Shown one piece after another: positions 45,208 to 45,351 of a stretch of DNA of 64,000 bases; position 1 is the stretch's first letter, and every line of letters begins with the position of its first letter. The position numbers and the translations under genes are program-made. Origin of the DNA: a virus; the IMG/VR virus record IMGVR_UViG_3300032282_004772; one strand, 5' to 3'. The notes below the pieces were generated by a model. That model did not search any database. It was given only the letters and a program-made list of their open reading frames with translations, and was not told the origin of the DNA.

Positions 45208-45290
45208 AAAAAAAAAGACCCAATAAAATCATTGGGTCTTTTGGTACAGGATATATATAGACACCCCCGATAAATTGGGGCGGACGTGTT
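45208..45290 (-). ncRNA. candidate ~80-nt small RNA
   Basis: TATTTATA at 45292-45299, hairpin CCGCCCC...GGGGGTG, terminator GACCCAAT/ATTGGGTC plus U tract, no ORF. Confidence 0.6.
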
Positions 45291-45351
45291 ATATAAATAT
45301 TATTTTTTTTAAAAAAGTATATTGTTTGTATAAAAAAACATAAATTTTTTA

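Follow-up and report, generated by a model that had tools for sequence, protein, structure and literature searches.

A candidate antisense pairing between two conserved RNA-level elements of an uncultured T4-like Flavobacterium phage

Introduction

Among the closest described systems, the CI RNA of phage P4 (seqA/seqC) and the c4 RNA of phages P1 and P7 are antisense immunity RNAs with short complementarity to repeats in the same phage genome, and AgvB and AsxR are prophage-encoded anti-sRNAs, or sponges, of enterohaemorrhagic E. coli. To our knowledge, the Bacteroidota lack Hfq, and hardly any small RNAs that act in trans are known from lytic phages, with none that we know of from phages of the Bacteroidota. 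A review describes CfrI, an antisense RNA of the T4-like cyanophage S-PM2, and DicF, a trans-acting prophage sRNA (PMC12197685, for CfrI citing Millard et al. 2010).

Here, we examine two loci, A and B, that lie 13.3 kb apart in a 64-kb stretch of DNA (hereafter, the window) from an uncultured T4-like Flavobacterium phage represented by a metagenome scaffold only. The original prediction proposed that a small RNA encoded at B pairs with a leader transcript at A through an identical 20-mer and thereby acts as a trans-encoded RNA switch. Both loci are more substantial than that prediction knew; A belongs to a conserved family too. Regardless of pairing, two conserved and unannotated RNA-level elements are defined: a small-RNA gene upstream of a 194-aa gene and a unit associated with an HNH nuclease gene. 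If the pairing works, it would represent a young RNA regulator near its origin, in which two unrelated conserved RNA elements are joined by a 20-nt patch.

Results

Genomic setting and a directional promoter-type motif

The window corresponds to about 101.6–165.6 kb of a 176,795-nt metagenome scaffold, on which it was placed via the 194-aa protein encoded next to locus B. It has a G+C content of ~30% and encodes a T4-type major capsid protein, portal, and large terminase, along with an endolysin, several HNH nucleases, seven tRNA genes (ARAGORN), and one tmRNA. The cultured relatives of the 194-aa protein are from Flavobacterium phages only, and many window genes are preceded by a TAnnTTTG box, which we take to be the Bacteroidota-type consensus. 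Two adjacent large ORFs on the minus strand (34246–35580 and 35525–36919) contain long tandem 15-nt and 18-nt repeats that translate into Gly/Asn/Gln-rich low-complexity tracts, and neither ORF has a PHROG family match.

The motif TATTTATA is found 38 times in the window versus 16 expected. Of the ORFs with 100 aa or more, 19 have the motif in the gene direction no further than 40 nt before their ATG, and 6 have it reversed. We regard it as a directional promoter-type motif; its reverse complement is the T4 late promoter TATAAATA, but the direction in the window is set by the genes downstream. One copy is located 25 nt upstream of the 5′ end of the phage tmRNA gene (24541–24929, minus strand; Rfam, 73 bits). 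In several genes, the ATG is only 1–4 nt past TATTTATA (e.g., at 11551–11558 and 62655–62662 on the minus strand and at 32663–32670 and 40791–40798 on the plus strand), which suggests leaderless late mRNAs.

Table 1. Predicted features of loci A and B, in window coordinates.
Feature	Position	Strand	Basis
TATTTATA promoter-type motif, unit A	31855–31862	+	TATTTAT invariant here in 22/22 family-A relatives
34-codon ORF of unit A (MKTTDNMIGLLVQDILLASLRVHKLTLRSLDKQN)	31884–31988	+	Same-frame ORF through CUU-UUG in 17/22 family-A relatives
20-mer, copy A; family-A invariant core GTCTTTTGG at 31909–31917	31908–31927		Maximal posterior probability over core
Intrinsic terminator of unit A	32003–32036	+	Terminator prediction and fold
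HNH_5 nuclease gene preceded by family-A elements	32067–32561	+	Pfam HNH_5, E = 1.4e-16
TATATTTG box (45180–45187), then 194-aa gene (P0001), ATG 4 nt downstream	44591–45187	-	318 homologues
Intrinsic terminator of unit B, 13-bp stem, U9	45204–45242	-	Terminator prediction and fold
20-mer, copy B, reads AUAUCCUGUACCAAAAGACC in B RNA	45235–45254		Exact repeat
Unpaired UAUAUAUA and linker UCCUGUACC of unit B	45243–45261	-	Unpaired probability 0.4–0.9
5′ hairpin of unit B, CGCCCC/GGGGUG, 9-nt loop	45262–45282	-	MFE fold
TATTTATA promoter-type motif, unit B	45292–45299	-	Motif enriched and directional; TATTTAT at same place in 13/13 family-B units

A putative small-RNA gene upstream of the 194-aa gene

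On the minus strand, locus B reads TATTTATA, a hairpin, the segment UAUAUAUAUCCUGUACC, an intrinsic terminator, a TATATTTG box, and the 194-aa gene (Table 1). This order of parts makes a convincing case for an independent small-RNA gene of about 85 nt with its own late-type promoter motif and terminator, and no start-codon ORF is found within the unit. In the predicted RNA, the 5′ hairpin has a 6-bp stem, and the UAUAUAUAUCCUGUACC segment between this hairpin and the terminator is unpaired. The 20-mer starts at the last AUAU, takes in 12 unpaired nt, the linker among them, and ends 8 nt into the 5′ arm of the terminator.

We find 13 distinct units of this kind (family B), comprising that of the window and those of 12 further contigs, and all of them are upstream of the 194-aa gene or its homologues. 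The best homologue of the 194-aa protein overall has 68% identity. A second contig that carries the identical 194-aa protein is identical at the DNA level. In the predicted fold of every unit, a 5′ tail precedes the hairpin, which is at the equivalent position in 13 of 13, and an A+U-rich stretch stays open before the terminator. The pair closing the hairpin loop is C-G, G-C, or U-A in a near subfamily, and the stems of a far subfamily are wholly different (CUCUC/GAGAG, CACUC/GAGUG). Pairing appears to be kept while the sequence changes, and RNAalifold applied to a MAFFT alignment of the family recovers the hairpin weakly. The UAUAUAUA block is conserved, the linker that leads to the terminator differs among relatives, and the box-plus-ATG layout that follows the unit is kept. 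Hence, the small-RNA unit originally proposed at B, with its own promoter motif, hairpin, and terminator, holds up well and recurs as a conserved element. The proposal that this RNA is a bipartite guide with arms of 7 and 20 nt is not supported: the 7-nt arm is at chance level, and its B copy shares sequence with the beginning of the unit, a part that the family conserves and that joins the 5′ hairpin in the MFE fold.

Several other observations concern family B and its surroundings. The unpaired 5′ tail of the family-B RNAs reads CACUCCCUU, in some cases also CACCUCCCU (L073:2554–2655, L317:2598–2699, L001:5532–5618, and others), which we take to resemble the anti-Shine–Dalgarno end of 16S rRNA; the copy in the window has lost most of this type of tail. 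Only 4 nt separate the TAnnTTTG box from the ATG, both at the 194-aa gene and at its homologues in contigs L001, L016, L069, and L073, suggesting a leaderless mRNA made from a host-type promoter. A second small-RNA-like unit is present at 53125–53232 on the plus strand, opposite to its neighbours; here, TATTTATA is followed by a CCCC/GGGG hairpin and, after some 40 nt, by a strong U9 terminator. This unit has no match of at least 14 nt elsewhere in the window.

Searches for other members and for known RNAs gave the following results. At the gathering score, Rfam has no match at A or B in the window or at the loci of six relatives, and permissive Rfam scans yield sub-threshold noise only; ARAGORN and Rfam give no tRNA or known RNA at either locus. 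Two pattern scans for further B units return only chance-level matches among the matches listed, and the linker of the L001 type is found in its own contig only. Comparison of the B units of the window and L016 with cultured phages by blastn produces no meaningful match, and the immuto Flavobacterium phages have the 194-aa gene with no B unit upstream of it.

A conserved unit ahead of an HNH nuclease gene

Locus A reads as a second short transcription unit, about 165 nt in length, and as a member of a conserved family that is absent from Rfam. The HNH_5 protein encoded downstream has 66 IMG/VR relatives at 54–63% identity, and we resolve 26 distinct copies of the family-A element, each ahead of an HNH_5 nuclease gene that adjoins a tRNA cluster. 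The element is about 150 nt long, with a layout as in locus A: TATTTAT, the four invariant blocks GUCUUUUGG, UAUGAGAAC, CGAACCAUAAAC, and CUAAAUC, a covarying GAGA/UCUC hairpin, and a G+C-rich terminator. GUCUUUUGG, the invariant core of the family (codons CUU-UUG), falls inside the 20-mer. With a covariance model built without the window, locus A is the best match in 337 kb (25.8 bits, E = 0.056, full length); this match is at the syntenic place before the HNH homologue, and GUCUUUUGG is aligned with top confidence. A third GTCTTTTGG in the window is inside a gene, and the other GTCTTTTGG copies in three family-A genomes are in coding sequence rather than in RNA-like units.

An ORF of 27–35 codons runs in the same frame through CUU-UUG in 17 of 22 family-A relatives, and most copies follow the peptide pattern M.ID..CLLG..YEN..R.GK.RTINYC. 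The peptide of the window has only the Leu-Leu pair in common with those of its relatives, and a local tblastn search with this 34-aa peptide gives no match. Because the blocks are invariant even at third codon positions next to a protein of only the identity given above, the constraint on the family appears to be at least partly on nucleotides. Within the family, the window copy is the most divergent member, with degraded UAUGAGAAC and CGAACCAUAAAC blocks, and it may be decaying.

A small ORF with a perfectly complementary small RNA would fit the suggested type I toxin-antitoxin system, with the 34-aa peptide as the toxin and B as the antitoxin RNA. We consider this scarcely credible. In the peptide, Q and D interrupt the longest hydrophobic run (MIGLLVQDILLASL, 14 residues), which lacks the length to cross a membrane. 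The RNA gene neither overlaps nor adjoins the ORF but lies at a distance of 13.3 kb, and what the family conserves is nucleotides, including those at third codon positions, rather than a hydrophobic peptide.

The attenuator that had been read into unit A fares no better: the alternative pairing is weak and does not appear in the MFE fold, and sequestering the 20-mer leaves the terminator unchanged. In relatives, the family-A element borders a divergently oriented tRNA cluster. Genes for tRNA-Leu are downstream in the window only; the 13 relatives scanned have no tRNA gene after the HNH gene, and a leader that senses Leu ahead of tRNA-Leu genes is therefore not a family-A property. A TAnnTTTG-like box lies between the A terminator and the HNH gene in most relatives. 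The opposite-strand tRNA-Met gene has a TAnnTTTG box of its own (repeat I7), which argues that A is not read through on the minus strand.

An exact 20-mer shared by the two loci

As originally noted, the 20-mer GGTCTTTTGGTACAGGATAT is present exactly at both loci, as direct repeats on the plus strand. The promoter-type motifs of both loci, the B hairpin, and the B terminator (45242–45213, minus strand) are likewise found as described. Allowing up to three mismatches, these are the only two matches in the 64-kb window, with no third; 0.03 are expected, and two or more are found in 0 of 100 shuffles. The copy searches cover the 64-kb window of the 176.8-kb scaffold, and the many scattered copies that the original prediction associated with a DNA operator are not seen within it. 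The 20-mer is the longest dispersed exact repeat of the window and also the one of highest complexity, with 45% G+C in DNA of 30% G+C. In order-2 Markov simulations, ~15% of windows yield repeats of at least 20 nt, which are A+T-rich, and repeated 16-mers with at least 40% G+C occur on average 0.06 times per window. Because such G+C-richer 16-mers are so rare in simulations, we arrive at a probability of roughly 1e-3 to 1e-4 for a 20-mer of 45% G+C. The length of the repeat alone is unremarkable; its composition makes it far beyond chance.

Outside the 20-mer, local alignment of the flanks yields no significant similarity (p = 0.41 and 0.55 versus shuffled sequence), and we see no larger duplication. 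The original prediction also pointed to a second complementary arm, ACGTGTT. This 7-mer is indeed present at both loci (31943–31949 and 45284–45290), but it is out of register, at 15 versus 29 nt from the 20-mer, and is at chance level. No copies of the 20-mer were found in IMG/VR, and its four matches in JGI metagenomes are all in unrelated coding contexts. A coding duplication was rejected, as the plus strand at B has no start-codon ORF through the 20-mer. An assembly artefact is unlikely, as copy B recurs in an independent Logan contig and an assembler cannot make a second copy of the 20-mer.

Direct repeats, with an invariant 9-mer that adjoins the HNH gene in all family-A members, might also be expected of a DNA-level site at which the neighbouring HNH nuclease or another phage protein binds or cuts, or at which recombination takes place. 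We judge such a site quite unlikely, given that the 64 kb hold only two copies with the third GTCTTTTGG being intragenic, that the 20-mer is non-palindromic, that there is no integrase among the PHROGs-scanned ORFs between the copies, and that cutting its own site would be self-destructive for the phage. Moreover, both flanks of copy B are contiguous in relatives, and therefore the 13.3 kb between the copies are not an insertion at B. Attachment-site repeats of an integrated element were rejected on the same contiguity and on the absence of an integrase from the scanned ORFs.

Predicted pairing of the two RNAs

Motif and terminator point along the plus strand at A and along the minus strand at B, which makes the two predicted RNAs antisense to each other over 20 nt of perfect complementarity, in agreement with the original prediction. 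The A–B duplex is calculated at −33.3 kcal/mol, an outlier when compared to every 40-nt window of the 64 kb (z = −9.4), and the net gain on co-folding is −20.5 kcal/mol. In the co-fold, the A terminator stays intact, contrary to the proposal that B switches termination in A, whereas the terminator of B is replaced by the intermolecular duplex. The predicted invasion of the 5′ arm of the B terminator is thus reproduced, with 8 of the 13 nt of this arm in the match.

That co-folding swaps the B terminator for the duplex raises the converse possibility, in which the A RNA would sequester the 5′ arm in nascent B, or in an endolysin-operon transcript ending there, and cause read-through into the 194-aa gene and later genes. 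The location of the unit directly upstream of the 194-aa gene in every relative is consistent with this arrangement. We nevertheless find it unlikely that A acts on B: the 194-aa gene has its own TAnnTTTG box at the ATG in all relatives, the span open to binding during ongoing transcription would be roughly 30 nt (from the linker to the 3′ arm), and relatives retain the B unit without A.

Conservation and origin of the match

Among the records tested, families A and B are found together only in the phage of the window. In four B records, the HNH gene is present some 20 kb from the unit and on the other strand, with no A element before it. The 194-aa gene lacks a homologue in three A records, which include a complete genome of 321 kb, and A is missing from another five records (one complete). 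In relatives, each record contains its equivalent of the 20-mer as a single copy at up to three mismatches, and no outlying duplex partner for the B units is seen in the contigs of relatives, where the best non-self z is −4 to −5.4. No other examined record has both families, and the pairing is accordingly not seen in relatives; as far as these records indicate, the 20-mer match is specific to this lineage and not a family property.

The single-copy equivalents are relevant to a further reading, in which the family-A RNA would be a cofactor or guide of the adjacent HNH_5 nuclease. Here, GUCUUUUGG would serve as an invariant handle, followed by a variable 12–22-nt segment naming a nucleic-acid target and then by further invariant blocks. 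The segment would name the B locus or the B RNA in this phage, and those of relatives would name sequences outside their own genomes, which fits the lack of self-matches in relatives, including one complete genome. We hold this reading to be highly improbable.

The match can be divided into parts of different age. GGUCUUUUGG is ancestral in family A, and AUAU and AAAAGACC are ancestral in family B, with the same terminator arm in L001, L319, L073, L317, and L016. Because both sides are ancestral, an 8-nt complementarity between GGUCUUUU in A and AAAAGACC in the terminator arm of B existed once the two elements resided together. The remaining 12 nt lie in parts that vary within each family, a segment of A and the linker of B, and it is these further 12 nt, outside the ancestral complementarity, that are beyond chance. 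A short templated copy from B to A, seeded on the shared GGTCTTTT, is probably the simplest origin; stepwise co-evolution of A and B is a possible alternative.

Discussion

The sequence itself shows the shared 20-mer, the two families, the orientation of their motifs and terminators, and the computed energies; transcription, pairing in vivo, and any regulatory effect are our inferences. In the reading that we prefer, both RNAs would be made late in infection, and the 12-nt open toehold of B would nucleate a 20-bp duplex with A. This duplex would mask the conserved GUCUUUUGG core, and the RNA with the A mini-ORF would be blocked or cleaved, possibly by RNase III; at the same time, the terminator stem of B would be unzipped. 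The net role of B could be that of an antisense binder of A, or A could be a sponge for B. For the whole of this reading, a working antisense interaction in which B masks A, we estimate a probability of roughly 0.4.

Its main competitor is a neutral relic, in which recombination-dependent replication or repair, primed on the GGTCTTTT that both already shared, transferred a templated patch of 10–12 nt from B to the variable segment of A, and any duplex is inconsequential. Templated ectopic sequence changes of this kind are classically described in phage T4. The original prediction had named a duplication relic as its own alternative; in the form of a short patch this is nearly as likely as RNA pairing, although the flanks show no larger duplication. 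The identity is perfect and contiguous, with abrupt edges and flanks lacking homology, which is the mark of a copy event, and selected trans pairings are usually imperfect. The microhomology junction also pre-existed, with AUAU and AAAAGACC in B and GGUCUUUUGG in A, and the patch sits where A varies in sequence and length. That the two families are rarely in one genome leaves no ancestral link between them, and a functional reading is further weakened by the confinement of the pairing to one of the examined records, by the degraded state of the window's A, and by the burial of 8 of the 20 nt in the terminator stem of B.

Other features argue for function and against a relic. The copy is antisense to a transcribed unit, as judged from its motif and terminator, and lies exactly on the accessible linker of B, which could serve as a seed. 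It covers the most conserved nucleotides of A, with all 20 positions intact, and both units retain their promoter motif and terminator. Furthermore, a 20-bp duplex with a 12-nt toehold would be hard to keep inert between RNAs that are co-expressed. An antisense interaction is the reading that we carry forward. As to the trans RNA–RNA switch of the original prediction, the B unit appears to be real and the transcripts are predicted to be antisense, but the pairing is limited to one lineage, for which a switch is plausible but unproven. Both families are open to testing in cultured Flavobacterium phages or via expression in Flavobacterium johnsoniae.

When compared to known systems, unit A resembles leader-peptide attenuators in having a promoter motif, a short ORF (with an invariant CUU-UUG), and a terminator before a gene. 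It differs from them in the weakness of its alternative pairing, which the MFE fold lacks, in the TAnnTTTG-like box before the HNH gene of most relatives, and in the restriction of downstream tRNA-Leu genes to the window. The immunity RNAs of P4, P1, and P7 are, like A and B, short phage RNAs with short complementary stretches elsewhere in the same genome. Those RNAs, however, are processed from the operon that they control, have several repeats as their targets, and function in the lysogenic immunity of temperate enterobacterial phages, whereas A and B are two predicted promoter–terminator units 13.3 kb apart in a T4-like Bacteroidota phage, with one target.

CfrI is similar to the pair described here in being a non-coding RNA of a lytic T4-like phage that is linked to a homing-type nuclease gene (PMC12197685). 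It is a cis-antisense RNA that overlaps psbA and the endonuclease gene, whereas B is encoded in trans, and the HNH gene beside A is part of a conserved module and not a sporadic insertion. AgvB, AsxR, and DicF (for the latter, PMC12197685) are likewise small RNAs of phage derivation, each with a terminator of its own, and pair with RNA from another locus. They are Hfq-dependent and have host RNA targets, whereas for A and B, both predicted partners are phage RNAs.
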